DNA from: Reclinomonas americana ATCC 50394
Taxonomy: Eukaryota
DNA length: 34,296 nt
Direction of reading: 5' to 3'
NCBI GenBank assembly: GCA_048213135.1
Contig: PS015370.1
Location: 16,686 to 50,981 of the forward strand
Positions 1,373 to 34,296 of the stretch are shown here, piece after piece. Under the pieces are notes generated by a model. The model made no database searches. It was not told where the DNA came from and saw nothing but the letters and a program-made list of their open reading frames with translations. Within the stretch, counting starts at the first letter, position 1. Each line of letters starts with the position of its first letter. The position numbers were made by a program, and so were the translations under genes.

Positions 1373-4300
1373 ATGATCGCCTCACGCGCACATGGTGGCG
1401 TCCAGCACCTTCTCTATGGTACGCGCACTCCACCTTCTCTCTTTCCTGTGTCGTTCACCATGCACTCACGATGACCATCTTCTTGGGTCATCACTGCAGC
1501 ACTCGTTGTTGTGTGTGTACTTGTCGTGGTACCACACCTGGCCGTCGCCGCCGACACCACACCACTGAGTAGTGTGACGATTACGGGCTCGATCGTGCTG
1601 GCCTCTGCTGACTCGCTAACATTCTCGCTGCGGCCTTCACGATCGTACGCGCCTGCAGACGGCGCCAGCCCAATGATCGAGGTACGCAGACTCTCTGTTC
1701 CTCTCTCTCTCTCTCGTGCATAGTCTCACACTGTGCTCTCCTCTCTGCACGCGCGCAGGTCCTTCCCGACAACGACAACGCCCTTGCCATGCTTCCCCTG
1801 AACCCCGAGCTGTGCCCTTGGTCGGGCGCCTACACCCTCGTCGGTAACTCCACCGACACCACGCCAACGGCAACAGCCGACTACGGCTTTGTGGTGTGCA
1901 CGTTTGGTGAGCAATGCCACACTGTTTCTTGCACCCCTTTCCACTCGTCCTCACCGAGTCTCTCTCCCCCCTTCCAGCTCGACCACTGCAAAGCACCGGG
2001 CTACCGTACACGCGCTTCCGTGCACGAGTTTCCACGGTGGCAGGCAGCGGTCCGCAGTCGCCTGCCATGAACTCGAGTTGCGACCGTTCCCGTTGAGTGC
2101 CTTCTCGCAGCTCTGAGTCACTCATGACCCTGCTTGCAGACGTTTTGTTGCTCGACACCTCGGTGTCGGCTGCCGTTCTGTCGCTGGCCGACAGCGTGCT
2201 CACCGTGTGGTTCAAGGCCAGTGATGCGGCGGACAGCAGCTTCGGCCTGTCGCCGCGCTATGAGGTGCACTGGCCGCCAAATAATGCGAGAGAAAAGTCA
2301 TTTTTACCCACAACACTCACCTCTTGTTTCCCCACCGTTACAGATCATGGCCATGTCTGATCTGGCCACCCCTCTACAACCCGTTGTGGGCACCGACTGC
2401 GTGTGGAGCACGAATAACACCGACCCGGTGACTTGCATGTTTGCACTTACTGACAATTACAACGCCACCAGCATGTTTGCTGCTCGAGTCGCCACAAATC
2501 AAGTGGCCGGCATGCCGAGCGCCACTTTTGCGCCAGGTTTCGTATCTCTTGCTTCATTTCCTTCAGCATTCCTTTCTTTCTTCCTCATTTTGGCGCGCAG
2601 TGCAAGTGTTGAATGTCGGTGGATTCGACAGCGTGCGCGTCGTCTCTGGCTGGGTGAACGCCATCACCGTGGTGGGTACCGGCTTCTCTGGTGGCGATCA
2701 GTTCCGCGTCATCTCCACTGCCTCGTCGTGCAGTGACGTCGCCGTCACCAACGCTGCGGCCGTGGTATACTTGCAACGCTCGTGGTCTGGCCACTCGATG
2801 CACGTGCTATCGCTCGTGGTCGCTGGCGAAGGAGAGTATCAAGTGCGTCAGGGTATTCTTGCGCTTTCTATGTTGTGCACCGACGCTCATCTCCTCTGTG
2901 CATGCACGCGATCAGCTATGCATGAAGTTCGCGCAAGGCACCGTGTTTAGCGCCATTCCGTCACCACTGTCCACATTCATGGCTGTGGCTCGTTGCGTTT
3001 TCGATTCATTTCTCTGCCCCTGTCCTCTTTGTTTACCATCTCTCTCTCTCCACACACACAGCCGCGGCCTACAACTCCACTCTTGTTGGTTTCACTGGCA
3101 GTCCGGCAGTTGATCCGCAACTCGTTGATGCCGCCATTGCTGGCAAGGGTGTGTGCATTTCTCGCGTTCACACCACCACTTTTGCTTCATCACTTATGTT
3201 GCTGCGTGCCTGTTCCTCACAGGACTCACCATCGACGATGAGATCGCCGTGTCGCGCAGCCCCACTTGCGCATCGAAAGAGATCACCGGCTTCACCATTG
3301 TCGGCGCCGAGCTCATTTCCCCGGAGCTACGCACCTTCCACATTGGCGCCAGTGTCGGCGGAACGTACTATCTGTGCATTCGTTTCCGTGGGTCGGCTGC
3401 GTTGACCCCAGTGGGAACTGCACCGTTCTTGGTCACCGGTGCGACAATCCCGCAATGAGTTAGAGGAGCACCTTGCATGCGGAAACTCACTCCACACCTT
3501 CTCTCTCTCTGTTCGCGTCTCCTTGCACTCCCGCAGGTATCGTCGCCAACATTGCACCGGCTGTTCTGCTGACGGACCGTGCCTCCAATCTCACCATTAT
3601 CGGCTCCGCGCTCACCTCCGACGACAAATTCTTCTTTGTCCGCAGCAACTGCGCGGCCGCCGATCCAGCCACCAACTCCTCCGGCGTGGAGGTGCAGGTG
3701 TTGCCGGGAAGAAATTCCACAGTTACTCAGCTGCAATCCACTGCACGTGGGCTCGGCGACTTTAGGCTCTGTGCTCTGTATGCCAACAGCACGCAACCGG
3801 TGGACACGGGCTTGTCGATCACTGCACATGGTTTGTTCGAATTGCTCTCTCGACATTGCTTTCCTTTACTTCCGCGTACTCACCTGCCCCCGTCCGTGGC
3901 ACTACAGCCGAATTGAACGGCATTGCACCCTCCATTACCGTGGTCTCCATGGCTGTCACTGTGTCGGTGAATGGTATTGGCCTGCGGCCGCAGTTCGGCT
4001 ACAAGTTCGTGTCGGTGTCGGAGAACGACGGTTGCGGTTTCCCGAACAGCGATGCCGATGCCGCCGCCCCGATTCACTCCGTAGCGACGGCCTCCGATGG
4101 ATCTGCTGCCACTCTTGAGCTCAGCACACCTGCCGTGGCCAGTACACTCTCGCTCTGCATGCGCGAATCCGTCGACGCGCCGTACGGGCGAACACTACTC
4201 TCGCTGACCGTGCGCAGTTGAGTCTTTTCGATCCGTCGCCCTCATGTTTAGCACAACTAACGTGTCCCGCCCGAACGCCACAGCTGTTGCGGTTGCGGAG

Positions 4301-7300
4301 AGTGTGTTGCCGTCCTTTGTGCGCGCCGGCGCCGGACTGATCAGCACCATCACACTGGTTGGCAACAATTTTGAGGAGTCGACGGCCATTCGTCTGGTAG
4401 CATTCGATCAGAGTGCCTCGTGCAACATGAACGGGGAGCCGAGCAATTCGCCTGCCGTTCTCTCGCTCACCACAGCGCGACCGACCTCCACTCACTTCCT
4501 CGTCACTGTCACTGTCGACTCACCGGGCAACTTTGTGGTGAGGCGCTGAGGGCGAACGAATTTTTGCTTTTTTGCACCCGACTTCTGATCCCCTCTCTCT
4601 TCACCACGCAGCTGTGCATCAAGCCAAGCGACATTCTACCGTACGAACAAGTCGGTGGTGTCATCAAGAGCATTCCCCGTTGCGTCTCAGTGTTCCTCCT
4701 TCAGTTTCTCTCCTCATCCTCATCTCACCTTTCTTCGCAGCGCAAGCCACATCTTCGTCGTTGCAGGAAATGCAGGCAACGCAGGCGAACTCGCAGCCGC
4801 AGGTGTTCCCGCTGACCGTCTATGGCAATGCACTGGATCCGACCGACAGGCTGATGGCTTCGGCGTTTGGAAGCGGCTGCGCTGAACTGCCGGCCAATGT
4901 GGTGAACTTGGCCACGCCGTTTGCCACCGCCAACAGCACCATGTACTCCACCACTATCTCGGCCACGGTCGGCGGCTATTATGAGCTGTGCGTCAGCTTC
5001 CAGAACCGCACGCCAAAGACTCGTGTGCTGTCAAGTGGACTTGTTGTGCGCGGTGCGTCGTCGAGAGCCAGACGGTCTCCAATCCTTCATTATCAGCCAC
5101 TCACCTCTTGTCGCACGCGCAAACTAGGTCTCGTGGAGTCGGTGTCGCCCCTGTCGGTGCCGGCCGACAAGCCGTCCATCGTCACAGTCCGTGGGTTTGC
5201 CTTTGCCGCGAACGACACTTTCATTGCGATTCCGGCGACGGCCTCGTGCACCTCCCCTCCACCAACGGCCACCACCACGCTGATTCGAGATGCAAGCCAG
5301 TCGACACCCACAACTGTGGTGCTGACACTAACGCCGGTGCTCGGTGGCACTGTCGATGTTCGACTCTGTGTGCGATACTCTGGCGTTTTGGCACCGGTCG
5401 CGGCGACGACATCCATTATCTCCGTTGTCCGTTGCGTTTCTTCATCCACTGATTGTTCACTAGCGCACTGCTCATTTTTGCTGACTTCATGTTGTACAGC
5501 GCGCCTCGACAGTGTGTCACCACTTCGCATGCTGCGCAGCAGTCGCACCACCATTACCGTCCGCGGCGTCGGTCTGCGATCGACTCTGCAGCTGCGAGCG
5601 GTGATGGCCGACACACCAACCGGCTGTGGCAACTCGACCAGTCTGATCGACTCGGTGGCGGCGTTCTCGTTGACCACTGTGGATCTGTCGGGTGAGACAG
5701 CGTCGTTTATCATGGAGCCACTGCGCTCTGGTTCGCTTCTGCTGTGCACGCGAACCAACCAGTCGGCGACATTCACGGCGCTGCAGCCCGGCACTGGCAT
5801 GACCATTCTTGGTTGGTGTAGACGTTGGGAGGGGCTGTGCGTGTGTGTTTCTGTGATTCGTTGACTGATGAGCTTGCAGATTTGGTGACCTCCATGAGCC
5901 CGCTGGCCCTGCGTGCCGGTACCGATCTGGTGAATCGTGTGACTCTCGCCGGCAACATGTTCCGTCCGGACGATATTGTGGCGGTGGGCGATCCCAGCTT
6001 GCCGTGCTCCGCCGTCAGCGCAATCGCTCTCTCCATGCTGGTGTCGAGTCCTTTCAACGGGAACAACACGCTTGCCACGGCGACACCGCCACCGTTGCAG
6101 CCCATTGCACCATCACGGCAGTCGAGCGCGGCAGTGACGTTTGTCAATGTCACATCCACTACCGACACGATGCACACTGTCGACGTTGTCGTGCGCTTGC
6201 CTGGCACTTACACGGTCTGGCCTCAATCAGTCTCGTTGTGGAGATTTGCCTGCATGGTCCTCACTGAACATCACGATGCAGCTGTGCGTCAAATCCGCTC
6301 TGCTGAACACCTTTATCGTGCCAAGCAGCAATACCACTCTGGTGGCGCTCCTGCGTTGCGTCACTCTGCATCTCACTTCCCCCGTAAAATGTCATGCTCA
6401 CTGCGCATCGCATGCACAGCCTCTGCCTCCACAACCGTCACAGAACACATCATTCCCGTCAGCTTGCCGTCGCCTTCCCCGCCATCCATCGTGCCGCTCA
6501 CCCTGCAAGGCGTCATGTTCACGCCTGCAGACACATTCAGTTTCGTGGACGCCTCGACTGTTGGCGGTTGTGCTCTGCCGGGCAACTCGACTGCACGTGT
6601 GGTAGACGCCACGTTCAAGTCCAACACCACGTTTGTGCTCTCTGTGGCCGCCACTGGCGGCGGACACGTGCAGTTGTGTGTGCGCTTTGCGTTGCGCGTG
6701 CAGCCTGAACCGGTCGCCGAGGGCGAATTCATTTGTCGAGGTGCGTGTGATTCGTGATCTGCACCATTGCTGGATTCTCCTTCTCACTTGCTCTCTGCAG
6801 GCGCGTTGCGCTCCATCTCTCCCACGAGCGCGGTTGCCACGACAGTGGCACTGCCGGTCACATTCTCGGGATACGGCTTCACATCGGCCGATATTGTGAT
6901 CCTCATTCGCCTGGCGACCCCGTCCGCTGCCGTCTCCTGTGGCACACTGGCCACAGCAACAACACCGACCACCGACATGTTCGTGGCCTCGAGTGTGGTG
7001 GCCGACACCGCCGGCTTGGTGGCCGTGGTCACGTTTGGCCAGCTATCGGTGCCCGGTGGATGGTTTGGAGTATGCATTGGTGCGGCCGGTAGCAGCATGT
7101 TTGCCGCGCAACCGCAAGTGGTGTTCCAAGTCAAGCGTGCGTACCTCGATGTTTTTGGTGAGCTTCCACTTGTTCCTCTATTCACTCACCACCTCTTGCA
7201 TGGCGTCTCTTGGCAGCATCGTACACGTCGGTGCTTCCGCTGCAATTCGACACCATGTCGCCCGCACCCTTTGTCATCACTGGCGTGGGCCTGTACAAGG

Positions 7301-10300
7301 GAACGAGTCTGCGCTTTGTGCACGACGCTGGAGCCGGTAGCTGCGGTGGCACTGCGGTGGTAGACGCAACATTGCCGACGATCAGCGGCATCACAATGCA
7401 GCCCGACGGCACTGCGCTCTCCGGCACTTTTTCGGCCATCAAGAGCGGCAGCTACCGCTTGTGCGCACTCGCCGACATTTCGTTCGAGTGGGTAGCGATG
7501 CCCAGCACGGTGTCTGTGGTGGCCGATTCCATTGTGCCCACAAACGTTACCGTCACTGGCATTGTCGTGGACGGCTTTGTCATCTCGTGGGACTCGCGAG
7601 TGTCCAACAGCACCAAGAGCACGATTGATCGCTTCTCGGTCGTTTTCTCCACCCCCGGCTCCACTGCGGCCACCGAGCTCACCGCCGCGTTTGACGTGAC
7701 ATCGGTTCGCCAGTCGGTACGTTGCCCGACGTGCGACGACAGTCCCACGCATGCATCTCATTACTTAATTTGATGTTCTTCCCCTGTGGCAGCTGCGTGT
7801 CACCGGACTGGCCTCCGAGACGTTTGTGTCGTCGCTGCGTGTGTACCCGTGGATCAAGAGCACCGGAAAGCGCTACAGCGATTACGGGGAACCGTCACCC
7901 AACTCGTTGACCACGCTCACCACTGGCACGTTCAAAATATGATTGTCGGGTGATTGCAAGTGGCTCTGCTTATGACTAAAGTCTCTGTTGTCGCGCAGCT
8001 CCGACTGCGGCACCCGCCGATGTGAAACTGTCTGGCATGACCTCGGAGCCACGCAGCTTATTGCTGCAGTGGAGCGCTGTCACCATTGTCGGCTTGACGA
8101 CCAAGTTCAACTATGTGGCGCAGTATCAGCGTGTTGGAGGCTCCGCGTGGCTCCCCCAGAATCCGGTACCCATTGGTCAACTGAGCACGAAATTCATGGG
8201 ATTGTTGGCCGGTACGGGCATGTGAAGTGGTGCAGACAAAAGGGGTAGATGATTCATTCAATCTCTGCATTCGCTGCAGGTGTGTCGTATCGCGCGCGCG
8301 TCAAGGCCGTGTCCAATGGAGGCGACGGTCCGTGGTCATCGTTGGCCACTGCATCCACAGCCACGGATGGTAATTTGCGAAGTCTTCTCTCGCCTTCCGT
8401 CTAGTCGTCTCTGACACCAATGCCCTTTGCACAATGCAGGCTCACCTCTGCCTCCGACGAATGTGACTGTCAGCACAAGCCCAGTGCGTGTGGCCTGGCA
8501 ACAACCGACAGCACTCTCCACCATCACCGTCGACTCGTTCCTCATCGTCTTCTCTTACTCGGGGTGAGTTGTGCAAGAGTCGAAAGTCACAAACCCTGCG
8601 CACTTGCATCTCATTCATCAGTGCAGTGGTGCCGAGACGCGTGTGACAGTACCCGACGCTGCGGCGCGGTTCTTCTTGCCGACCGTGGACAAGCTGCCGG
8701 TCGGCATCGATATTGCGTGTCGCATGCAAGCCATTGCCGGCAACAGCCAGAGTCCGTACTCGGATGCTGCTGTCTTCCAGCTGGCAGCCGCCAGCACGGC
8801 TTCGGGACCCTCACTGTTCCTCACCTTCCCCGATCCGTCCAACCCCACGGGCTTGTACGATGGCTCACCGGTTGGTGGCCAATTGATGCTCACCGACCAG
8901 TCGGTGGCCGGCGGCACGGCCAACATTAACCTGTTGGCGGCCGGCGATGCACTGCAGTTGCGCACAGTAACTTCTTGTGAATTACTGGGGGAAACGAAAA
9001 AAACACTCACCTCTGAGCTTGCGGCAGATTCGACACTGGCGGCGTGGCGCTGGTGCAGCTGTCAGTGACGACATCTGCAACGGTGAGTTTGAGGGAGTAC
9101 ACAACGTCCCTCCGTCGTGCTCGTCTAACGCCCACATTCCAATGCTCAGGCGGGCTCCACTGGCACTCTTGTTCGCTCTTTCGACTTGAGTGCTCGCGCC
9201 GTGTCCATCTCCAAGATGACGACCTCGTCCATTGCGACACGTGACACTGCTCCCGCTGCTGGTGCACCAAGTGGCAGCAACGCGTGGCGTCAACCGCTGA
9301 CGCTGACCGCCACCATTTCGCCACCGGTGCGTTTATACTGCGGTGTATGCGCTGAGGGCCACCGAACTCATGCATGGTTGCGCGTGCGCAGAGTGAGACT
9401 GCAGCTCTCATGGTGTCGACCTCGTCCGGTGGATGGGTGGGTGCCGACGGTCCCTTGTGCTCCAATTTCCCAGATGCCCCCAGACCCTCGTACGACAAGG
9501 CGTCCGGTGTTCTGCAGGTGCCGATTTGCGGTGCCGGCTCGTTTGGTCTCATGCGCAATGTTGGCGTCGTCACTCGTGCGTTACTCGATTCCCGTGCTTG
9601 CTGTCGAACGCCGCCACTCACATAATGGGCCTCCATATCACACAGCTCCACCCTCCAACTCGGGCGACTCGGGGAGCGGCACCAACGGCAACGGTTCCTC
9701 CGGTAGCGGAACCACGCAGTCACTGGCCAAACCCTGGTACCGCAGCGCCGGTGCCATTGCCGGTATCAGCGCCGGTGCGGCGGCAGCCTTTGCTCTCATC
9801 ATCCTTCTCATTGTGGTGATTGTGAGAAGACGCCGTGCCAAGCGCCTGGAGAGCAACAAAGTTGCGCGCGCTCGCACACGTGTGTATACGCACTTTAGCG
9901 ACCAGCAGTCTCACTCTTCTTCCCGCGTGTGTTCGCACAGGCTGGACTCACGATCACTGCGGCGGACGACCCCAACGGTGCCAACAAGTGGCCGATTCGT
10001 GACGAGAGGCGACACTCGGCGATCGGCTTGCTGGATCCGACAAGCCTCCACAGTCCCATGGCTGGCGCACAGCCGCCGGCGTCGCCAAGCGCATTCAAGC
10101 ACCTCAGTACGCCCAAGTTGGTGGCGGGGGCAGCCGGCAGCGATTTGGCCACGGAGAGTGGCTCCGAGTCGACAAAGCGCGCCACCATGATGCAGACGCT
10201 GAGCGACATGTCGACGACACATCCGTCGAGTGCCGGCAGCTTCGGTTCCATGTCACGCGACATCAACTCGGAGTTCGCCCGGACGCCAGGCAGTCAGCCA

Positions 10301-10843
10301 CCTCACGACCACGCGCCGCATCACATCGGAACGACGTTTGTCACTTTCGACTTTGATGGCATGACTGCGGACGACTTGCCGAGTGAGTACCTGGAGACGC
10401 TGGCCGACTCGCCAGTCGGCGACGGTCACGGCGGCGACGGATCGAGTGCACCGGCTATGCTAACACCACAGCCAGCCACTCCCTCCGGCACCTTCATGCG
10501 ACCAATGGCCCTCTCGCCACGCACCATGGCCGACGACGGGTGGACCGTGGTGCGCGAGGACCGCAACCTCTCGCCGGCCTCGGCCGCCGCCTTGGCACGT
10601 CGTCAACATCACCACGGTTCGTCGGGAAGCATCAGCCCCGCCGAGAGCGAAGACGTCGCCACGGCGTCGTGGGCTCACGTGGCGCCACCAGCCACGGAAT
10701 CAATTTTGGATGTCACTCGCACGCGACGAGCAGTGGCGGCCACCACCGGCGGCCTGCCCAGCGGACGCAACAGCGCGCGTCCCTTCCAGACCGGCACCTC
10801 TCCACCCAAGAGTCGCGTACCGGTCTTCCTCAAGCCGCAGTGA
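1373..10843 (+). CDS. Large type-I cell-surface protein: signal peptide, tandem ~100-aa Cys-containing Ig/IPT-TIG-like repeats, about 3 fibronectin type III domains, one TM helix and an S/T/P-rich cytoplasmic tail (~32 exons, ~2,300-2,400 aa)
   Basis: Splicing 1419-1499 joins MIASRAHGGVQHLLY to ALVVVCVLVVVPHLAVAAD, a signal peptide. About 31 short introns keep the frame to TGA at 10841-10843. Repeats follow 'V.P...T(I/V).G..F...D...C...G.Y.LC' (e.g. GGTYYLC, GGYYELC, GSYRLC). FN3 signatures at ~7530-8780 (PTNVTV..FVISW; PADVKL..LLLQW..GLLAGVSYRARVKA). TM AGAIAGISAGAAAAFALIILLIVVIV followed by RRRRAKR at ~9746-9845. Confidence 0.85.
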
Positions 10844-10967
10844 GCAACAGCGAAAACGAAAACAAGAAGAGCATGTGTGCAGCGACGCCACCAGCAGCTG
10901 CAGTATTAGTTTGTGTGTGTATACGATGATGCATATTGGCACTCTAAAGCAAAACAAGCGGGGAGGG

Positions 10968-11584
10968 TCACTTGGTCTCCTCCTGGAGGGTGGGAGCAGG
11001 AAGTGAGGTCATGGTCAGCGATGTTGTGCTGCATGAGTCGCACCTCTACATCCCAGCCGTCGTCTCTCAGCTCCTGAATGAGTTCCGCGGCGCGCTGTTT
11101 GGGCAGGTGAGAAGGGAGGGTGAAGGGGAAGGGAGAAGAGGGGAAGGGAGGGGAATGGGAAAGGGAAGGGAGGGGAAGGGGAAAGGGAAGGAGAAGAGGA
11201 AAGGGAAGGAGAAGAAGAAAAGGAAGGCAGGCAAGGGAAGGTAAGAGACGAGAGAGTTCTGCAGACAGAGACAGGCACAGAGGGAGAGAAGGGAGAGTGA
11301 CGCAACGTCATCGGCAGGTGATGAGTGTGATTCTGCAGGCTCCGCATCTCCATAACGCGACCGATAGGCAAAGAAGAGTGCAGTGAGGGAGCCCACCAGG
11401 AGGAGCACAGCACGTGCGCCACGCTGTACGTGAGAGACAGAGACGCACACACAAATGCAGAGGGTGAGACAAGGCGACAAGAGGCAATGCATTCTGGATG
11501 TGCATGTGCAAAGACCTTGGTGACTTGGCGCACAATACCCATCGCCTCCTCAAAGTTCTTGTCGGGTATGGGTGCACTGCTCAT
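10968..11584 (-). CDS. ~83 aa four-exon single-pass membrane microprotein of unknown function
   Basis: Three phase-0 GT-AG introns join MSSAPIPDKNFEEAMGIVRQVTK | RGARAVLLLVGSLTALFFAYRSRYGDAEPAESHSSPADD | RAAELIQELRDDGWDVE | EETK-stop. One hydrophobic segment (AVLLLVGSLTALFFAY). Confidence 0.6.
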
Positions 11585-11750
11585 CTCCCCTGACGCCACA
11601 ACTGAAGACACAAGCACACGAGAGACACAAAGAGACAGGACTTTTTTTACTAATCGGAGCCTCGTCGTCACCTGGCACCACTCTCCAACCGCGACGATAC
11701 AAAGCCTGCACAACCACAAGCAACATGTCAGTCAGCTACTTTCCCCTGCT

Positions 11751-13011
11751 CTATTTGCTCATGTGCTTGTGGAGCGCACCTGTGAGCTCGGCCACTTGTC
11801 GACGTTCCTCTTCTATCTTGACGCGCAGCTTGGCCTGTCGTCGCTCCTCCCGTGCCTTTTTGCGTGCCCGCTCCTCTCGTTCTCGACTGCGTGAGGTGCG
11901 GCAGTGAGCAACGAAGGCGAGGGCATAAATGGAACTGCGAGCGCAGACGACGCAACAGCTGCGCGATAACGACACGAGCTTGTTTCAGCTTTTTCGCGGC
12001 GGGCTTGATCTGCTCCGGTTGTGCCATGTACTGAATGCGCTCGGCGCCCTCGGCAAGCACACGATCGACCTCGTCGAGACGCGCCTCGTGCTCGTCGACA
12101 CGCGCGCCCACCAATTGTCGCAGCGTGACGCCCGACGCGGAGGCAGCCAGTGCCGCCCGCAGTGCCGCCAACGCAATAAGCATGGGATGGAAGAGGAACT
12201 GAGCGTCGGTGGCCAGCGACGTGCGCACTGCGGTCTTGGCACGCTCCCAGGTGCTGGCCGATACGCGCTGCGCCACATCCTTGCACCGAATCCCATCCAG
12301 GAAGCGATACGGATGATGAAAGTGCAAGTGGAAGAGCGTGCCGGCGGCCACAGTCAGCTCCATGGCCAGCACATCATCCATGGAGATACGCTCGTCGGAG
12401 ATCTCCGACATGCGCTGCACCAGATCGCGCACCGTGACCGCATACAGCTCCTCGGCCTTGCAGGCCAGATACAGACAGGCGACAGTGACTAGCACGGGGT
12501 CGTGCTCGGCCACCGAGTTGCGAATGTAGAATCGCTTGAAGAGAGACATGGCTGAGGCCTCGACGACCAGTGGCAGGTGCAAGCGCACGGCCAAGTCGGG
12601 CATCTTGGCCAGGAAGTGATGCTGCAGCACCAGCTCTTCGTCCACAGTCAACCAGTTGCGCTGGAGGGTGGTTAGCGCGCTCTTGCGCTTCTTCTCGCCA
12701 CCAGAGGACTGTGGGAGGGGAGGAGAGGAGGAGAAGAGTGAGGACAAGTCAAATGCCAGTGTGCGTGATCATCATCTCCTGTCACACACCTCCGCTGCGG
12801 CCGCTGCCTCCTCATCCTCCGCCCGCGCCAGCTCCACCAGGCGCGTCTTGACGGCCTCCAGTGCCTCCTCTCGCCACAGCCTCAACGCGTCCACGTCACT
12901 CACCATCCAGTGACGCGCCTGACTGCTGTCGTCGAAGAAGGCATCACCTCCTCCTCCTTGTCCTCCTCCTCCTCCAGATGCCACACCACTGCTGCTGCCG
13001 CCTTCACTCAT
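11751..13011 (-). CDS. CCNH: Cyclin H-like cyclin (CAK/TFIIH CDK7 partner), 3 exons
   Basis: N-terminal FDDSSQARHW resembles the cyclin H 'SSQxRxW' motif. Cyclin box LTVDEE...ASAMSLFKRFYIRNSVAEHDPVLVTVACLYLACKAEE, then FHLHFHHPYRFLDG and TDAQFLFHPMLIALAAL. Intron 11956-11887 joins a charged C-terminus ending HKHMSK-stop. Confidence 0.85.
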
Positions 13012-13694: not shown

Positions 13695-13976
13695 ATGGAC
13701 GACGACTTTGGAGGAGGCGTGAGTGGTGTGAGTGGCGCAGGCGGTGCGCATGGCGGTGCCAATGTCTCTGCGAGTGTGGCTGCGAGTCTGTCGGGACAAG
13801 GCGATGCGCGCAACTGGCTCATTCATCTGTTGTACACGCGAGGAGAGCATGATGAGTGCTTGAGACTCATCGAGGAGCAGGTGTGTGTGTAAGAGAGAGA
13901 AAAAGAGAAAAAGAGAGGCGAAGAGAGGCAACGAGAGAGAGATCGATAACAACGCATTGATCAACTGCCTTCTCAT

Positions 13977-14016
<40 letters not shown>

Positions 14017-19843: not shown

Positions 19844-20809
19844 ATGAAGTTCGGTGTGCAGCTGAGCCTGCACTCGCTGACGAAATGGCGCAACAACTAT
19901 GTGCGATACAAGCGACTGAAGGACAAGATCCACGCGGTGGTCGCAGCTCACATTGCCACCGGGTCTGACTCTCTCTTTGTCTCCCCTTCCCTCACACACA
20001 CACACAACGCTCACTTTGCGCTCATCAGTGTGGCCATTGACTTGCTGCCTGAGGAAAAGTCGTTTGAGGAGAGCCTGCACTCGGATCTTCGGTTCGCATC
20101 ACACTTGTCTGTGTGCGCTCTCTCTGTCGTGCTCACACTGTGCACGTAGGGCGGTGAACAACTTTGTGGCGCTGCAAAAGGCGGCACTGGAGAGCGATCT
20201 GTTTGCGTTTGAGCAACGTTTGCGCGTGTCGTTGGCGAATGGATCGTCGGATCGCCATCGACGCCCCGAAGACGAGGAAGAAGAGGAGCGTGAGATTACA
20301 CTGGAGGAGGTGTCGCGACTGCGTGCGCTGTGTGTGGACTTTGTGCAGCTGCGACACTTTGTGCAGCTCAACGCCGAAGGCTTTCGAAAGGTGCTGAAGA
20401 AGCATCGGAAGCACACGCAGTATGCGCTCGATCCGCGACTCGATCCCGCCACGGCCTATCGACAGCCGTTTGCCGATCCCGAGTCTCTGGCGTGGTTTGG
20501 TTCGCTCACTTGCTGTGCACTGTCATACCCTCCCCTCCCCTAGAAAACCTACCTCGTGGCTGATCCCTCGGTTCGCAGCTCGTCGACTGCAGCACATTCG
20601 CTCGCTCTTCCAGCAACGTGTCAGCGACGCTGTGAGCGAGACCGAGCTGTTCAAGCAACTGATGGAGATCACGTTGGAGGTGCCGCCGGTGGTGCGTCGG
20701 CAGCGATCGATCTGGCGTCGATACTCGTTTCGCGGCTCGTTGGTCCCGCTGGCGCTGTGCCTGTATCAAAAGGTGAGCATTACGGGAGAGCTCAACTCGC
20801 ACTGTCTCT

Positions 20810-20855
<46 letters not shown>

Positions 20856-23800: not shown

Positions 23801-24961
23801 CAGGCCATGGAGTTGCAGCACGAGATCGTGATGCATCATGTCAACAGGATCCTCGTGCATGGTCCGCCCGTGCGCACCAACGTGCGAAACGCCTTCGACA
23901 AGAACCCCGAAGACGATCCGCCGAAGATGCGCTCGAACTATCTGCGCGGGCACGCCTGGAGCGGTCTTCATTTCTACTTTCGCAACATGCACCAGGTGAG
24001 CGCTGCGAGCGTGAGTGACTGTTCTTCCCGAGCCGTCCATCTAAGCCACGCCAACAGACCATGCTGGAGCGCACGGAGGAACTGATGGATCTCGGCCCGA
24101 TGCCTCGCGTGTTCTTGCACGGAAATCCACACATTGACAACTTTGCCAAGGTTATTTCTCGAGGTCGATACTGTTCCGCAGGGAATGCCCTAACCCCGCT
24201 CACGTGTGCAGGGCGTGGCCGGCTCTGCATTGTTGGACTTTGATCGCTCCAAGTTCGGTCCATACGCCTGGGATCTGCTGCGCCTGATGGTGTCGCTCTC
24301 CATCCGCTCGAAGAGCGCTTCAACGCACCTGTTGCACTGGTCGCTCGTGCGTGCCGTGCAGGAGGGCTACTTTTGGGGCTTCCTACATCCCGATATGCCT
24401 CTCCGCGACATGCAAAAGTTGTCGGTTTGTGTGCTGCACGATCGCCTCTTTGCCGCGTTTCTCCATGCTAATTTCGCGCATAGGTGGCTCGCCCGTTGCC
24501 CGAGGAGGAGACGACGAATGCGTACCTTGCCGCCAATCGTGGCTGGGCCATGGAGATGCGTGAGAATCAGCTGCCGGTGGACGACGAGAATGTGCAGACC
24601 CTGGTGCGCTTGTACGCCGAGTCGCGTGGCGAACCGAGACTGCTTTCCGAGTTTCGTCATCTGTTGCTCCTCTCCTCCAACCAGCGAGCTCAACGTCGGG
24701 TTGCACGAAACACCCCTTCTCATACGCAGCTACCGCATCGAAGAAGCCGGTCGTGGTTTCGGGTCCATGGCCGTTCGCGATCGATACTTGGTGGTGTTGG
24801 CGCCCACCGCCGCCGCCGCTTCCTCGGATCGCCTGTTCCTCGACATCAAGGAGACTCGACGCGACCCCGACACGCGCTACTTTACCAATCCGTTCGACCA
24901 CAATGGCAAGCGAATGATCGCAGCTGGCAAGCTGTACGCTCCGAGCTGGGTTGAACGGGAG

Positions 24962-25035
<74 letters not shown>

Positions 25036-25450
25036 ATGAGGTGCAATTCGTGTATTCACGACTCATCGTGCAGGGGTTTGCCACGCTGGGCGGTGTCGAG
25101 TATCACATTCGACAGATACCGCCACAGACAATCAAGCTGAAAGGACTGTTGAACCTGGCCGACGCGCGTGACTTTGCGTACACGGCGTCCACTCAGCTCG
25201 GTCGAGGTCATCGCCTCTCGCTGCAGCCAGCCTGGTCGCCGCGTGATTTGCTGGCCCACCTGGAAGAGTTGCGACAGTGTTGCTCTTCTTGTCCTCAGGT
25301 GCGCTTGCACCCTCAACCGATCTCTCTCCGTGCAGCAATCTGCCGACCATCATCGATGTGGCTAATCAGTTGCGACAAGAAATCACTGGAGCGTACTGGC
25401 GCTACCGCGCGAAGTGCGACGTTGCCGAACGTAACTTTAACAACAAATAA
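19844..25450 (+). CDS. Multidomain protein: SPX - multi-pass membrane domain - thymidylate-kinase-fold P-loop kinase - DUF2252-like protein-kinase-like domain (~20 exons, ~1,400 aa)
   Basis: SPX: MKFG..W...YVRYKRLK, DLRAVNNFV, LRHFVQLNAEGFRKVLKKHRK. Many hydrophobic helices at ~20720-22490. TMK fold: GRFIVVEGLDGSGKSTQ (split by intron 22585-22660), IVLSDRYFYTSLARD, QPDLVMYFRIPVE, FYEAGLDL. DUF2252-like: LRGHAWSGLHFYF, HGNPHIDNFAK, DFD.SKFGPYAWDLLRLMVSL, GFGSMAVRDRYLV, FLDIKE. 19 GT-AG introns give a stop-free frame to TAA at 25448-25450. Confidence 0.8.
20814..20852 (+). repeat. (CT)n microsatellite forming an intron polypyrimidine tract
   Basis: Direct CT run just before the 3' splice AG at 20857-20858. 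Confidence 0.9.
24966..25035 (+). repeat. Compound (GT)n(GA)n microsatellite in an intron of the SPX fusion gene
   Basis: About 25 GT units followed by about 10 GA units directly after donor GTGAGT at 24962. Confidence 0.92.
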
Positions 25451-25501
25451 TCGACACCCAATCCCATTAGTGTATAGAACAACCAACCTCGCATGTTTAT
25501 A

Positions 25502-28500
25502 TTACTCATTTGCATTGTCGTTCTCCGTGAGACCCAGCGATTTGAAGCATTGCATCACGTGCCGCACGCGGAGCAAATTCTCACGGCAGCGTCCCAGCCG
25601 GTCGTTGAATTGCTGATGCACGATGCGCTCCAGCTCATCGCGATCGGCGGCCGCGAGGTCCTTGACGCGCACATAGCCGGCATTGTGGAACCACGAGAGG
25701 AGGCGGAGTACGTAATCGTCACTGTTTCGCCGCCCGACCAGTGGAGTGTCGATCAAGAGCGACGACTTCCACAGGCGCACGCTGGCGACCACCGTCGGTT
25801 TTACCACCGGGTACCACCGACGGCGTCGAATGCACACGGCCGCCGGTAGAGCCTCTGGCCTCCTGGTCGGCAAGTACTGCTCCTGTCGCCCGGTGACAGT
25901 GATAGACTGCAGTGCCGGTGCGCACGCGACCAGTCCGCTCAACGCGTCGTCCACGTGGTGCACATCTGTGGTGGATCAAGAACCATATGAGCAACAGTAT
26001 CCATGCGCGCTCTCTCTCTCTCTCTGCTGTGGCAAACACAAACCAATGAAAACAATGCTCGTCAACAGCGGCAGGGTGCACACAGTTGGATCCAGCAAGC
26101 GCAATTCCATGGCATCCACCCGACGCAATGTCAGTTGACGCAGCGACGGCGCGCATGCAGCAATGGCCGACCGCAACGAGTGCGAATGACAGAGCTCCAC
26201 TGGAGAGCAACTGAACGTTAGAATAACAGTAACCAAGAGTGACGGCCGTGTCAGTGACACCTCACCTTCTGAAATCACCAAGTCTTCCACCGCCTGGCAC
26301 CGCTCAATGTGCACACCACCAATTGTGGCTCCGAGGAGAAGACAGTGAGCCACGGCCACTGACGGGTTCGCGGCACTCGGCAAAAGCGGGAGAGCGCGAC
26401 GAGGATCGACGCTGGCCGCACCGCAGCGGAGCGACATGAAGTGGAGCAGCGCCTCCCGGGCGCGCCGGCAACCCGCTCGCGTGTACAGACGTGCAGCAGG
26501 AGCAGGAACGGCAAAGTGATGGATACGATGCCGCGGTCTGGCTGGCAGGGGCAGAACATGGAGACCGTCGACGTCCTCATCAAACTCGGCGACCCAGTCC
26601 ACCGCAATGGCCGGTCCCACCTCGCCGGCATCGACTGGCAGCTGCAACAGGTCGACCACCAGTGGCGCCGGCCTTGGCTGGCGTCGATTACGCTCACGAA
26701 CCTCTTCTTCATCGGCATCGTCTTCCGCTGCCCTTGGTGCGCCATCCAGTAGGGCGGACAACTGGCTCGGAATGGTGTCACCTGCGGCGAATAAGACGAG
26801 TCAAACAAGTGCACAGCGCATCGCACTCACGCACTCACGCAACATTGTGCATCAATGCTACGCAGTGCAGCCAGCATCGCGTCAGGTAGGTACGTTCTGC
26901 AATACCCGAGCAGCACATCCAGAATGTCGTGCGATTCTCCCAGCACTGCAATGATGGTGGTCAGCAGATGATCACCAAGTTGCACTTCCTCTTTCCCCTC
27001 TCTCTGTCACTCACCAGGCTTGTCGAGATATCCCGGCAGCTGCACAAGCACACACGACGGATCGCCATTCATGCACGAAATCTTATACGAGTAACCCGGC
27101 AGCTGCTGATCGTCGTCATCTGCTGGTCCGAGCTCAAGCGCAATGCAGCACACTTGGCGGACCAGGCAATCGGCCAAGGCGCGGTACTTGTTGTGTGCCT
27201 CGTTGAGAGCATCGTCAAGCTGCAGAAGCACGAGGGGAGTGAGTGAGAGGCATGCAAGAGCAAGAGTTGAGGAGGAACATGGCAAACCAGCTTCAGCAAG
27301 GCGCGCACATGCCGGTACGTCAAAAACGCATGATGGACAATGCGCTGCAGTTGATTCGCCAGCACCGACGCCGCTCTGCTCTTCCCACTCGCCGTATGCT
27401 CCACCAGTTCTCCCACCACAACACGCGTTGCATGCACCCACTGTTCGCGGAACATGCGCAGGTCGATCATGAAGTTGCAGTCACCGCCGGCGATCCGCAT
27501 GACTGTTTCCTCCACTTGTTGTGCTGCGCGCACCATCATGATTCAACACTCCCGGCAACCAGTTGTGCGAGAGACAGACAGCTGCAAGAGGCGCGCACCA
27601 TGCTCCGCGGTCTTGCTGTAGAACGTCTCGAGTGCACTGACCACGGCAGGCGCAAACAGCACAATGCTGACGGCTTCGGTGAGATCTGCAGGTACACACG
27701 CGTGAGATGAAGGGTCAGGAGGGGGCGGGGGAGAGAGAAAGATGAACGCAACCTGGCGCAGCCCATATGTCGGTCTTGATGGTCAGTGTGCTGCCCTCCA
27801 GCTGTATCACCCACAGAGTTAGTCCACGTACGCAGAAAGAGGAAGGAGAGAGATAAAATCGCGGTACCTTGCAGGCACTGGCCAGCGGATGTTCATACGA
27901 GTGCTCGAGATGAATCTCCGAGACAGCTCGCAGTGTGCGCAAAATGTGGCGAGCAAGCAGGGCACGTAGCGAACGCTGCGCGCAACGAAATCAGGAGGAG
28001 ACAGAGAGTGTCCGGCACTGCACACGCAACTGTCAACTTCATAAACTTCTTGTCGTACCGCGAGGTGATGGCAAACTGCGTGCCGTACCACGACCGCAAG
28101 CTCGCTACCACATCCTCCACGGGCGACACATGCCGAGTAAACAAGTCGCACAACGCCATAGGCCGTGTGGGGTCGTCCGGCAACATATCGTCGAGAGCCT
28201 GTGTCACCGACGGCCAGTGCACAGTCATGCGCCAGCGATCTGTAATATCGTCCAGCATGGGTAGCAGATCAAAGTTGACCGGATTGATGGGCAGCTCCCG
28301 CATGCATCGCGGACTGATAAAGTGGTACTGAAGTTGTCGACGCAATTGCTGCAGTACATCATCGCCGCCACCACAATCATCAGCAACAAAAGCGTGCAAC
28401 CAAACAACACACAGATAACTCGCTTACCTGGGGAATGATACGCGACTGCAGCGCCAGTGCCGCAGCCTTGTCGTTCATCTCTTGCAAGCGTTGACGCAAC

Positions 28501-31500
28501 ACCGGCGGCGGCAGCATCTGACTTCGTGTCCAGCAATAACCGTACTCGTCGTCAACGAGGAACACAAAGTAGATGCGATCGCGTGTCAACTTGTTCTTGG
28601 ATACGACGAACGGATCCTCCTGCGGGTCGCACGCTTGCAACACCAATTCAACCGAGTCCACACCAAACACCTCTTGACGTGCGGCCTCAATCTCGCGCGT
28701 GAACGGACCCTGCTGCAGCGACAGCAGTGGCTCGTAGACGCTGCGACACATGATCATGAGCTCGGCGGCGTCGTCCTAGAGGAGGAAATGAGCACGAAGT
28801 TGCGCGTCACTCTCGGAGGCGACAGACGCAAGCAGTAGTACCTCGTACAATTGCATCCGGCCGCGTGAGGATCTGCAGTGACGATGAATCGACTTCCAGT
28901 CGATGGTGATGGTCAGGCGGAAGAGCGACTTGTCGAGTTCGCGATCCGGCCAGTGACGAAGCGGGCGGAGATTGGCGAGTTTGTGCTCCTCGACACGACG
29001 CCATGCCTCTTCCAGTTGCTCCTCCACGTTGGGTATGAGCAACTGCTGTGTTGGCATACGTGGTTCCGCGTCAACGACACCTACACGCAGGCGGACTGCA
29101 CCACCAAAATCGGCCACCGTGCAGGCCACTTGCTCTGCAAATTGCACACAAGAGGGTGATTTCCAAGCTTCCGTTTCAACAGGGACACAAGTGCAAGTGC
29201 ACCTGGAACGGTTGTGAACGAGACAGAAACGGTACCGCCAAAGCGCGGATAGCCCCGTTGCAGCAGCTGTGCCACATGTCCGAGACACTGTCGACAAGCA
29301 GCTTGGTAAGTTCAAGCAGCGAGAACAATTGCGGTGACACCAAATGCCTCTGCAGACCGTCGCCGTTGGCAGTGCACTGATGAAAATGCATTGAGACATG
29401 GCATCCCCGCGACACGCGGCTGCGAGCGTCGCCCAGTCGACTTGCACCACCAATCCCGGGCACACACGGGCCAGCGCCGGCACAGCTTCCGCATTGAATT
29501 CGTCAATATAGTCCTCCACTCTGCGGTGCATCCAGTCAAAGTCGCCAGCGGCCGCGGCTTGCAGCCGAGCCAAGTGCCGCAGATCGAGCCACGACAAGGT
29601 GCTGCGCGTCTCCGAAGTGGGAACCACCGAGACCGTCGTCTCAAATGCAGGCACAAGCGCCAGCCGCCGATCGGCCGCTGCAGTCGGCAGTTCTACGTCG
29701 GGATGCCACTGCTGCTCGGCTGTTTCGAGTTGCGCTCCCGGAAGATCTGTACCCATGCTGTGAGAGTCAACCCCCTCCTCTGCAGCGGTGCCACGAAGAC
29801 AGACGCAACTGTGGTACCACAGCCGAACACGTGGATTGTGCTCCAACCAATGCCGCTCGTCGCCAGCGGGCAGCAGGTATGGCGGCAACACCGCCGCCAG
29901 CGCCGCTGCCGTACTCACATGACCAACGGCGAGAGCCTCTGCAATCGGGTTGCATTCACCGGGACCCAGCACAGGGCTCAACAGCTCGCTCAGTTCGGCC
30001 AGTGTCATGTGTGCGGTGGCGCGCTCCAGCGCTGCGCAGTTGGTGCTTCTCGGTCAGTCCATGCAAACACACTCTGAAAATCGATCACGAGGAGACGCAC
30101 CCACGGCCACCAAGTCAGTCAGTCCGTGTCGAGCAACAAAGGAGAGCACTGCCGGCCCCACACCGGCTCCAACATCCACCATGCGATACAGCGCGACCTC
30201 AAATCCCCTTACCAGATGCTGCTGCATCGACAACTCGAGTGCGCCCTGCACGACCTCTGCGTGCTGCTCCAGTGGTTCCGGCAGCACCTGCAGCAGCCGC
30301 ACCAGGCTGGCCTCACAATCGCCTCGCAAATTCGCTAATTCGCGAAGCACTTGCGCCGGTGGAATGCCCGCTTGCAGCACATGCTCGACTGCACCAAGCG
30401 ACGAGATTGAGCAACAATCGTCTCTTAACGTGACAGCGACAAAAACGCAACTGGCGGAGGGGCGAGAGAGGAGGACATGCCATGTATCCCATCGCGTGTG
30501 CTTGCAGGTTTGCGGTACTACAGTGGCCTCCGCGGCGGCGGCCGCCGGCGTTTGCAAGAGGTCGCGGAAAAGACCGCGCGCACCCAGCTGTTCCGTCATG
30601 CCCACGAATTCGTCTGCAACTGCAGCATCATCGACGCCAATTCCACGCAGTGTGCGCAACACGTGTGTGTGACCGCACACACGCGCCATGACCGCGCAGG
30701 CCATCTGTCCGTCGGCCCCCGGTGTGCTCCACTGGTGGAGATGAGAGATATGAGAGAGACTCTTCTTTTCTATAAAGCTACACTCAAGAACACTCACCGA
30801 TAACGGCGTCCACACTTCCACTCCGTGTTCTTTATGGACCTGCGAAATGACCGCAGCGAAACCACGCTCGGCGCAAATCTCCTGCACGCTCTGCTGCGGT
30901 CCGTCCACCTCCTGTGCGTTTGTTGCACATCATGTCAGTGGTGAGAAGTCCCCACATTGATTGGGCTCTCAGAAACACGTACTCGTTGCAGCAGCAGGTC
31001 GGGTGAGTAGTGCTGATCGCTGAGATAGGAGAGCAATGTGGCCTCACTGGCATGCCGAGCCAACGTCAGGACAGCCGGTCGCCGCGGCAATACGCCATAC
31101 TGATCACGGAACAAGTGTGCCAAATTGAGAGCGCCGCGTGCCAACGCCACATCGGTCCACGACACCGTGCCATCCTCCGTAAGTGGACTCTGCATGTAGA
31201 CGAGAGGATTGTCGCACTGCGCCACAATGCGAGCCACAATATGACTTGCTCCACAACGCATGGCGAGGCCAAGCTCGCTGCCCACGAGAATCTGCACGAA
31301 TGAATGAGAACTTGGAAATATGTCGCGATGTGTCGCCTCCGCACGCAATTCAAACCTTGCGGACGCAGCGCGGCCACGTGTCCGCCACAGGCTGGATGGG
31401 AGCGTGGCCGAACTCGGGCACAACACCTCGATCGAGCAACATGGCCGCGAGCGCCGGTCGCTTGTACCACAGGCACAGTGCCAGAGGCGAGCGCACAGGA

Positions 31501-34296
31501 GTGGCGTAGTCCGGCCCCATCCACGACTGCCACAGTCGAGAGTCGCGCTGATCAGTGGCCGGCACACCAAACTGGAAGTGCACAGGAGTCAGTGCAACAG
31601 CGAGTGAGTGGTGAAGGAGCATTGTAAAACGGCTCACCAAATCGATGAATTTGGCCAGCAATTCCTCCTGTCCGGCTTCGATGAGTGCTCGTGGCAGTGT
31701 CCACGCCGACAACAGTTGCATGCGCACGCCGACTGACAGGCGACGCAGCGGCTGACTGCCAATTGCCGGCAGCGGTGGCTCACGAGGTGGTCTCTTCTCC
31801 AGCACCAGGCGGACTGCGTCCCACTGCTGGCAATAGGCCGCCAACATTAGCGCCGTCCAGCCGTCACCCAGAATGTCGCTGCAGTGCGCGCGCGGTTAGT
31901 GGACGACAAAGAAAGTGTCTATTCGGGGCACACGCGCCGCACCGATTGGGATCGACATTCTCGCAGTCCAGCAGCTGCGTCACGAGTGGTACGATTCCCG
32001 GACCGCGATCGGCCACTTGAACCCAGCCGAATGGCGAAAAGAAATGCGCATCGCCTCGCGGCCGTACCACAATACTCAGTACGAGGGCGTCGTACGACAA
32101 CGTGAGCGAACCACAGGTGCCCGTGGCCACCACGTCCGGTCGCGCACCAGCGCGCAGCAAGGCACTAACCAGAGCCGAATTGCCCTGCGGAGCACGGAAA
32201 GAGAGGGATGGACAAGAAAAATCAACAACACTGCCAACAAAAGGAAGATAGCTGCACTTCGCTAGACATACCATACAACAGGCGGCCATCAGTGGCGTCA
32301 TCTACACCGCCAGTGTCAGCAACGCTTCACGAGGGATGTGACGACAGCAAGCGAATAACGTACTTGGAGCGACACCACTCGCATGTGTACGTTGCCTACG
32401 CGGAGAGGCGGCAGCAGCGCGCCAGGTACCTGCCACGTGTGATCGAGAGCCGGTGACTGCGACGGGTACCGTTCAAGCAGTGCGTACACGACAGGCAAGC
32501 GGTCCATGAGAATGCACTCAGCCTGGCGTGCGGTCAGCAGAGTGAGTGAAGAACGTGGAGGTGGATCACACATGTACCAGCGTGCTGGAATCGGGGGAGC
32601 CTTCGACGACCACACTGTCTGGGAATGCCTGCGTCACACACCCACTGTCAAACAGCAGCATTGACGCAGACAGAGGTGATGCACAGTGGACTTGACCTCC
32701 AAGCATGCCTGCAACGACGACAAGCTGCACGTCGCCGCATGCGCCAGCACACTTCGCAAAGGTGACCGTGCTTGTGATGTGATGCCAGACAAGGCCGGAG
32801 GTCGTGCAAACAACGGTTGCTGTTCTCCCTCACGCCACGAGAGAAACTCGCGTCTGTTGGTGTTTTGTGGGGGACTTTTAGCAGGGACTGGTAGCACATG
32901 AAAGAAGAGGTGTAACGAACCCGTATCCCTCCATGACCGAGTCGGCCACGTCTTTCGGCATCACCAAGGCACGCAAATTGCCGAGTGCAAGACTGTCTCG
33001 TCCCATTGTGCCACTACTCTCAAAGTGCACCCGCCGAACGCCAGCTCGGAAGCACGAAACCACCGTGACAGCGTTGCATTCGTTCAATGCGTACTTGGCC
33101 GGCACTTGAATCACCGGTGGCTCGGCAGTCACCGCTCGAACTCTCTCCAGCAGGCTGAGCGACTACAAGTCGGCGGCGTGAGTCGAACACTGGGGTTGCC
33201 ACGCCGAGGGCACACCACTAGCAACTCAACTGTCGTTGTCCAACCACGGCCGACCGTGATGCCGAGCAGCTCCGTCAGTAGCTCCAAGTCCAGCTGCGGA
33301 AGACGCTGCGTGAACGTGTCGACCTCATCCTGAGCGATGCTGGAGATCAGTGCTCTCATCGTCTTGCGCTCTTCGTAGGTCGCTGGCGTGCCAACGCGTC
33401 GAAGCAAGACTGCTATGCTTTGGCGGCAATCGTGCGCCAGAGTAGAAAAAGAGCCAGTCTCATCCACAGACAAGTCGACCAGGGATGTCGGTTGTCGCTG
33501 TACGGCGAGTACCAAGTGGTAAGCAGCAGGCGATTGTTTCAGATTTCGGGACACAGGGGAGGACTCCTTGTCGTACCGAGGCCACCCAATGAATNNNNNN
33601 NNNNNNNNNNNNNNTGTGTGCACGATGAGTCAGTGAGAAACAATGGAGGTAGAAGACGAAGAGGCAGCGATGACACACCAAGCTCCAGGTTGCCGATCCG
33701 GCAAAAGAAGGTGAATGGCGAACTCTGCACGGGTGAATCAAGGATGATGATAATCGAGATGGTGGTGCGCATCGCAGAGGACCATGCGTTACAACACCTC
33801 AAAGTAGGCAACCTGTCGTGTGTACTGCGCAACAATGGCCAAGTGACGCTGTGTCGTCGGATCGACAACCGCTGTGCTGCACGACCACACAGGAGCCACG
33901 TTTCTGCCAGACACTGTGGGTTGGAGACGGGAGAGCACAAACTATGCATGGCTGCGCACGAAACGATCGACCGCAGAGCCACCAGACGATTTCCGTGTGT
34001 CCACGACTGAGAGCATTGTTGAGGAGAGCGGGCTTGCACTGCTCGTACCAAATGCTGCTGCCCAAGACTTCCGCCTGCGTCGATATTGGAGAGTGAGCGG
34101 GATACAGCAATGAGAGGCAGACAGAAAAAGAACACGCTTGCTCTTACTCGCACGCAACAATGTCACTGGAGTCGCGAAGCGAAGCGTCGAATTCGAACTG
34201 GCGATTCCGCAGAGTGCGATCGCTGACGAACTGGGCGGCCACACCCTGCACGCCACGGCTCCGTTGGTGACTGTTCGCAGTACCGATGACGGGAAA
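25502..34296 (-). CDS. Very large multi-exon protein with ankyrin-like repeats in the N-terminal part and an unrecognised C-terminal region. The 5' end lies beyond the window. It may be more than one gene.
   Basis: ANK-like segments: NNALSRGHTEIVWWL, TPLMAAC..GNSALVSALLRAGARPD, DGWTALMLAAYCQQWDAVRLVLE, SPLALCLWYKRPALAAMLLDRG. Long protein-like minus-strand exons (e.g. 28840-29150, 28428-28760, 28030-28380) are separated by short GT-AG introns. Terminal stop at 25502. Not every junction was resolved. Confidence 0.6.
33595..33614. other. Small assembly gap
   Basis: 20 N. Confidence 0.95.

Follow-up and report, generated by a model that had tools for sequence, protein, structure and literature searches.

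The window described here is the whole analysed stretch of Reclinomonas americana ATCC 50394 DNA (contig PS015370.1 of assembly GCA_048213135.1, positions 16,686 to 50,981 of the forward strand). Its 34,296 bases have a G+C content of about 59% and include two runs of N, at 15386-15781 and 33595-33614. The window contains about seven intron-rich genes (Table 1), the introns of which are of the U2 type, short (approximately 70 nt), and CT-rich, and terminate in CAG. Many of these introns open with a recurrent 5' splice site (donor), GTTGCG or GTTGAG, for which an original prediction had proposed recognition by U1 small nuclear RNA (snRNA) in a shifted register. Donors beginning GTTGMG (M being C or A) are referred to below as class 2, and the wider shift type adds donors beginning GTTTCG; a vertical bar marks the exon–intron boundary. 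All counts derive from a table of 80 introns from this one 34-kb window, curated with the hypothesis already in mind; at introns without a homologous anchor, the choice among in-frame alternatives was made by the curator. The unbiased checks are the subset of introns anchored by homologous proteins and the subset placed by a donor-blind predictor.

Junctions anchored by homologous proteins

Junctions in BBS4 and in the fused gene were placed with a protein-to-genome spliced aligner of our own build, which knows GT..AG introns and BLOSUM62 only. For BBS4, all 14 orthologues returned the identical eight introns; three of the donors are GTTGMG (14392, 15123, and 15285, following T, A, and A, respectively), and the other five follow G. 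Tblastn alignments across the junctions of these three introns are gap-free (RSL|HLLG, NYVA|AISCL, and NTGQ|FASAF). The earlier statement that the BBS4 junctions are anchored by protein conservation is thus borne out by the full set of orthologues. Homologues of the fused gene were found by a search with the exon at 24731-24961, and 14 of them were aligned to the region from 19.7 to 25.6 kb, where they support eight ordinary donors, all after G, in addition to the shift-type donors at 24651 and 25268; the alignment of the fourteenth homologue ends at 25232, short of the latter site. A further class-2 donor of this gene, at 22042, is not homologue-anchored, the homologues having aligned noisily to the N-terminal half of the protein. 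Across the 18 homologue-anchored introns, all five shift-type donors follow a non-G base and all 13 others follow G (Fisher's test, approximately 1e-4 by hand arithmetic).

An artefact of gene modelling, in which the true junction lies elsewhere, would offer another explanation for the class. An in-phase GC is present at +3 of every GTTGCG, which would allow a cut three bases downstream (GTT|GCG); several sites have nearby in-frame GT alternatives; 12 of the 20 class-2 donors in the table have support confined to frame logic; and the 63-nt stretches beginning at 30451 and 29809 would keep the frame if retained. However, homologue-guided alignment with GC donors allowed kept the GT at 14392, 15123, 15285, and 25268 (counts in Table 1), and the in-phase GTT|GCG junction was ruled out, as the anchored donors were unchanged. 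The alignments are also gap-free at the BBS4 junctions, and the same aligner, applied to 22 BBS4 loci of other protists (some of them near-duplicates), yielded 62 introns with no GTTGMG donor among them. An artefact of this kind is scarcely credible. The alignments indicate that the junctions of the shift-type donors at 14392, 15123, 15285, 25268, and 24651 are real, and that the cut is made at GU.

Proteins of the window itself are absent from the protein collection, in which the closest BBS4 match is 71% identical, with prasinophyte green algae among the top clusters. A 33-base stretch of the window had no exact counterpart in the collections of genome contigs and viral contigs. A BBS4 exon used as query against metagenomes matched 51 loci, none exceeding 71% identity. 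Several of these (L002, L003, L005, L013, and others), from GC-rich marine protists, have GTGCGY donors that often follow a non-G base (caa|GTGCGCT, act|GTGCGTC); GTTGMG donors were not found in these metagenomic BBS4 loci. The 396-N gap at 15386-15781 lies inside BBS4 intron 7, and the 873 nt given for that intron are its length in the record, which may not be the true length. Homologues of the fused gene elsewhere measure 1178 to 1276 amino acids, and their source names one cluster dTMP kinase.

Base composition around class-2 donors

Class-2 donors account for 20 of the 80 introns (18 with GTTGCG and two with GTTGAG), in agreement with the quarter originally estimated. The last exon base is G at one of these 20 donors versus 56 of the 60 others (Fisher's test, 1.4e-13). 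The same difference is seen in gene 1 and BBS4 combined (0/11 versus 25/27), in all remaining genes (1/9 versus 31/33), and for the wider shift type, in which 27752 and 2537 carry G (2/22 versus 55/58 of the remaining donors). Within the table, the proposed association between the -1 base and GTTGMG is therefore strong. The wording that such donors occur only after non-G describes a marked tendency and not an absolute rule, as 27752 reads cag|GTTGCGT.

Counted over the whole window, the motif shows no enrichment (75 sites versus 60.7 +/- 8.7 in shuffled sequence, a count of 75 being attained by 8 of 100 shuffles), so any signal must stem from donor use. At donors it is strongly enriched, being present at 20 of 79 GT donors as compared with 43 of 2169 sense-strand GT dinucleotides (binomial, 8e-17). 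Comparison of used with unused GTTGMG sites reveals no significant depletion of -1 G (1/20 versus 10/55, p = 0.27), and G precedes only four of the 43 sense-strand sites. Used sites are enriched for A at -1 (11/20 versus 13/55, p = 0.014), for C at -2 (12/20 versus 16/55, p = 0.029), for the dinucleotide CA before the cut (8/20 versus 5/55, p = 0.004), and for T at +7 (13/20 versus 11/55, p = 0.0005). Class 2 does not exclude a -1 G; rather, the strong G requirement of ordinary donors is missing. The marks of used sites are a preceding CA and a T at +7, such that CA|GTTGCGT corresponds to an ordinary CAG|GTGCGT in which the +1 G has become T.

Ordinary donors are of the kind G|GT(G/A/T)(C/A)GT, and the three that follow a non-G base are perfect GTGCGT or GTACGT. 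Variants of the ordinary donor have shifted counterparts: GTGAGT is matched by GTTGAGT, and GTTCGT by GTTTCGT. By definition, class-2 donors never have G at +5 and always have it at +6.

Class-2 donors in the gene models

The donor-blind predictor, which sees nothing of a donor but its GT (or GC) and otherwise scores the acceptor, the length, and the coding sequence, reproduced 29 of 37 curated introns exactly; of the 90 introns that it called, 16 begin with GTTGMG. When predicted donors were clustered into two classes without supervision and without any donor model at the start, the classes obtained were CCA|GTTGCGTCT (weight 0.29) and G|GTGCGT (weight 0.71). A predictor with two donor classes preferred, or made up, class-2 donors in places that have an open frame in any case (29809), and its counts are not used here as evidence. 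Predictors with no donor matrix or a single one picked wrong in-frame alternatives, and a run with a single matrix replaced most class-2 donors. The CAG within CA|GTTG also mimics an acceptor, and a false intron ended there twice (4142-4217 on the + strand and 30521-30451 on the - strand). Genes with such donors are modelled wrongly by predictors that rely on one donor matrix.

The 17 GTTGCG and GTTGAG hexamers originally listed as frame-supported donors are all present, each after A, C, or T, and as donors they have fared unequally. Four are homologue-anchored, eight lie in the reading frame of gene 1, and the frames of their genes depend on two more (18950 and 22042). The donor at 11956 has a rival in an in-frame GTTCCA 21 nt downstream, which would leave a 49-nt intron, and the cyclin homologues (about 33% identical) do not reach this junction. 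Support at 34158 is moderate, and the claimed donor at 11306 is unsupported.

In gene 1, 30 introns were curated by eye, 29 of which give an open frame from 1759 to 10843 encoding 2349 amino acids. Most of its IPT/TIG-like repeats are encoded by a single exon that ends in a phase-1 intron 19 to 27 amino acids past an LC motif. At this same domain-end boundary there are five class-2 donors (2992, 4217, 4679, 5431, 6355) and six ordinary ones (3439, 3831, 5053, 5812, 6741, 7158). Three repeats carry an extra phase-0 intron just before the LC motif (donors at 2843, 4538, and 6215). A second class-2 donor, ccc|GTTGAGT, lies in phase at 2092 on the + strand, 15 nt from the donor at 2077, and the two may form a tandem pair of alternative donors. 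The 73-nt stretch at 7926-7998 on the + strand, actg|GCACGTTC, is read as a GC-AG intron because there is no in-phase GT, and because this is the only way to keep both the FN3-like exon and the frame.

Additional class-2 donors are predicted in g4, a large ankyrin-containing gene on the - strand. At 27752, no other GT would leave the frame open across the following two exons. A search with a g4 exon returned no homologues, which leaves frame logic as the support for 28030, 27752, 30451, and 29809. The two 63-nt stretches at 30389-30451 and 29747-29809 on the - strand, which start with GTTGCGT and keep the frame, may be ordinary coding sequence, or else introns that are retained or used alternatively. 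Towards its 3' end, the cyclin-like gene has a stretch of 421 nt (11095-11515 on the - strand) that includes a possible exon with a membrane-like segment, an extended tract rich in C and T, and the site of the claimed donor 11306. Pfam searches with ten single exons returned matches to TIG, DUF2252, and thymidylate kinase, all of them weak.

Table 1. Genes of the window and their shift-type donors, with the support for each.
Feature	Coordinates	Strand	Donor	Context	Support or remarks
Gene 1	1392-10846	+		IPT/TIG-like and FN3-like repeat surface protein	2349 amino acids
Cyclin-like gene		-			holds 11956 donor and claimed 11306 donor
BBS4	13.7 to 16.5 kb	+			
Coiled-coil gene		+			spliced coding sequence of 825 amino acids, open
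Fused gene	19844-25450	+		SPX-like N-terminus, membrane segments, dTMP kinase, DUF2252-like domain	1415 amino acids; one open spliced frame
g4		-		large ankyrin-containing gene	
Further ankyrin-like gene	window end	-			holds 34158 donor
Class-2 donor	2077..2083	+	cga|GTTGCGA	gene 1, phase 1, 63-nt intron	frame open only with intron; donor-blind pick
Shift-type donor	2537..2543	+	cag|GTTTCGT	gene 1, -1 G	frame requires; donor-blind pick
Class-2 donor	2992..2998	+	ctc|GTTGCGT	gene 1, domain end, phase 1	23 amino acids past LC, like sister exons; donor-blind pick
Class-2 donor	4217..4223	+	gca|GTTGAGT	gene 1, domain end, phase 1	19 amino acids past LC; predictors misread its CAG as acceptor
Class-2 donor	4679..4685	+	ccc|GTTGCGT	gene 1, domain end, phase 1	20 amino acids past LC; donor-blind pick
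Class-2 donor	5431..5437	+	tcc|GTTGCGT	gene 1, domain end, phase 1	20 amino acids past LC; donor-blind pick
Class-2 donor	6355..6361	+	tgc|GTTGCGT	gene 1, domain end, phase 1	22 amino acids past LC; donor-blind pick
Class-2 donor	8957..8963	+	gca|GTTGCGC	gene 1, phase 2, 71-nt intron	frame requires; donor-blind pick
Class-2 donor	9861..9867	+	aaa|GTTGCGC	gene 1, phase 0, 80-nt intron	spliced frame reaches stop at 10843; donor-blind pick
Claimed donor	11300..11306	-	gac|GTTGCGT	cyclin-like gene	unsupported: used by no predictor run
Class-2 donor	11950..11956	-	gct|GTTGCGT	cyclin-like gene, 70-nt intron	donor-blind pick
Class-2 donor	14392..14398	+	act|GTTGCGC	BBS4 intron 3, 72 nt	14/14 orthologues; 13/14 with GC donors allowed
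Class-2 donor	15123..15129	+	gca|GTTGAGG	BBS4 intron 6, 70 nt	14/14 orthologues, GC donors allowed or not
Class-2 donor	15285..15291	+	cca|GTTGCGT	BBS4 intron 7, 873 nt in record	14/14 orthologues, GC donors allowed or not
Class-2 donor	18950..18956	+	att|GTTGCGT	coiled-coil gene, 73-nt intron	frame requires; donor-blind pick
Class-2 donor	22042..22048	+	cca|GTTGCGC	fused gene, 70-nt intron	needed for the open 1415-amino-acid frame; donor-blind pick
Shift-type donor	24651..24657	+	cga|GTTTCGT	fused gene, mirrors ordinary G|GTTCGT	14/14 homologues; 13/13 with GC donors allowed
Class-2 donor	25268..25274	+	aga|GTTGCGA	fused gene, 68-nt intron	13/14 homologues; 13/13 with GC donors allowed
New class-2 donor	27746..27752	-	cag|GTTGCGT	g4, -1 G, 67-nt textbook intron	donor-blind pick
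New class-2 donor	28024..28030	-	aca|GTTGCGT	g4	frame chain by eye; donor-blind pick
Possible class-2 donor	29803..29809	-	aca|GTTGCGT	g4, 63-nt intron	predicted, but inside a 425-amino-acid open frame; uncertain
Possible class-2 donor	30445..30451	-	cca|GTTGCGT	g4, 63-nt intron	predicted; frame also open if retained; uncertain
Class-2 donor	34152..34158	-	att|GTTGCGT	ankyrin-like gene, 84-nt intron	frame and ankyrin-like downstream reading by eye; moderate support

Recognition by U1 and comparison with known donors

The base statistics fit the shifted-register reading of the original prediction, its insistence on a preceding non-G being overstated, and make it moderately probable that U1 pairs with class-2 sites one base out of step, in a +1 shifted register. 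The +1 G of the intron would then face the U1 nucleotide whose usual partner is the final base of the exon, U at +2 would be mismatched, and +3 to +7 would take the usual partners of +2 to +6; A at -1 and C at -2 of the exon would lengthen the helix. As the ordinary +1 G is T at these sites, the first usable GT would lie one base upstream, and the later steps of the spliceosome would still cut at GU. In duplex folding with a human-type U1 5' end, 15 of the 20 class-2 sites choose the +1 register. When U1 positions 5 and 6 were varied in the model (16 hypothetical combinations), G-C gave the best fit to the donors overall (means -8.5 and -7.3); for this modelled end, 17 of the 20 sites adopt the +1 register, and 27752, with its -1 G, folds as a bulge.

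The class can equally be described as the ordinary consensus with one extra T, which would suit a bulged-base register, in which U1 pairs normally at -1, +1, and +2, one of the two U bases at +2/+3 forms the bulge, and +4 to +7 meet the partners usual for +3 to +6. Registers of this kind are established at human sites (PMC4856993, PMC9311317), and the two donors with a -1 G, 27752 and 2537, would fit such pairing. However, a bulge keeps -1 paired and predicts a favoured -1 G, as opposed to the 1 of 20 found here versus 56 of 60, with A at -1 and C at -2 enriched instead; as a general account of the class it appears distinctly unlikely. The shifted register is preferred over a bulged U because the -1 G is lost, A at -1 and C at -2 are gained, and the ordinary donor variants are mirrored.

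Several observations weigh against recognition in the +1 register. The sample is limited to 80 introns of one window, assembled by a curator who knew the hypothesis, and the eight class-2 donors of gene 1 may not be independent, as its exons are tandem duplicates. Though C stands at -2 in 12 of 20 class-2 donors, the equivalent -3 of ordinary donors has no C preference (15/60), so the shifted sites are no plain copy of the ordinary profile. At least seven sense-strand sites with a preceding non-G (H|GTTGMG) within modelled exons seem to be unused, and the shift-type donors 27752 and 2537 follow G. Finally, class-2 sites form very weak duplexes when folded against a U1 5' end of the human type (mean -1.5 versus -6.2 kcal/mol for other donors), which implies either that U1 differs here or that pairing is not what selects these sites.

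The folding model predicts the former, either as a divergence of U1 or as an additional U1. An additional U1 snRNA of variant sequence, or a sole U1 that has diverged, with a 5' end directly complementary to GUUGCGU would account for duplexes that a human-type end leaves nearly unpaired. It would also explain why C occupies the +4-equivalent position in 18 of 20 class-2 donors despite a mismatch to human-type U1 (T is found there in 0/20 versus 17/60 ordinary donors), and it is in keeping with G-C being the best of the modelled variants. However, GC-rich genomes can favour C at +4 with no change in U1, and an Rfam scan of the window at gathering thresholds gave no match, with no U1 or U6 gene in these 34 kb. 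A U1 dedicated to GUUGCGU seems rather unlikely.

The weak predicted pairing with a standard U1 end would also be compatible with recognition independent of U1 pairing, by proteins or by U6/U5 alone, or with a different type of intron, such as U12-type introns or an introner family. The conserved G at +6 and T at +7 are, however, exactly as shifted U1 pairing predicts. None of the 80 introns has a U12-type donor ([AG]TATCC) or branch site (TCCTT[AG]A[CT]). Beyond +8, pairs of class-2 introns have a mean local alignment score of 13.44, as compared with 13.46 for other pairs and 12.33 for shuffled sequence, which argues against an introner family. Class-2 introns and the others have the same median length (69.5 nt), and all 80 introns, 79 with GT and one with GC donors, end in AG with CT-rich tails. 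In 68 of the 80, a branch-site-like yTnAy precedes the AG by 8 to 45 nt, and both classes have it. Explanations of this type are highly improbable.

Extension beyond the window can be put forward only tentatively: the +1 shifted register may be routine across the genome, at approximately one intron in four, and the U1 5' end may either come in two forms or have diverged so as to carry G and C at positions 5 and 6, in keeping with GUGCGU. If so, a division of labour between U1, which finds the site, and U6/U5, which fix the cut, would be exposed in a natural system; and if about a quarter of introns have G neither at the exon end nor at +5 and are still spliced accurately, U1 pairing and the cleaved bond would be routinely uncoupled. 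The class would provide a natural setting for the study of how a 5' splice site passes from U1 to U6/U5, and would also test whether the near-universal 5' end of U1 can change.

Atypical human 5' splice sites recognised by U1 pairing shifted by +1 have been described previously (Roca and Krainer 2009, via Tan et al. 2016, PMC4856993; review PMC9311317). The likeness to class 2 is close: in both, GU is followed by one extra base and then by the normal +3 to +6 motif, both the -1 G and the +5 G are absent, and the cut falls at GU and not at the bond that U1 pairing implies. The published model oligonucleotide for the shifted register, ACA|GUCAAGUAUA (PMC4856993), likewise has an exon ending in CA. 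The core differs, being GCG here and AAG in the human shifted sites. Additionally, the human sites are rare according to the original prediction, whereas the donors described here occupy 20 of 80 introns with a nearly fixed sequence, their dependence on U1 being inferred. Bulge registers (Roca et al. 2012) also accommodate one extra nucleotide at +2/+3, but they keep -1 paired, unlike class 2.

In humans, a site that lacks G at +5 nearly always has G as its last exon base (Burge and Karlin, via PMC8283771), and the ordinary donors of this window obey the same rule of compensation. Class-2 donors lack both bases, a combination that the rule says should almost never occur unless the register is shifted; the shifted register would explain why both are missing. 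A change in the appearance of 5' splice sites at the level of a lineage has a parallel in the tunicate Fritillaria borealis, in which GT has been lost from most introns and for which the authors themselves consider that U1 might bind in a shifted register (PMC13326754). Unlike in that species, GT-AG is retained here (79 GT and one GC donor), and only the flanking register differs. A literature search, with most subscription journals and all supplements outside its reach, did not turn up any description of a GTTGCG donor class or of a lineage in which the shifted register is used on this scale.

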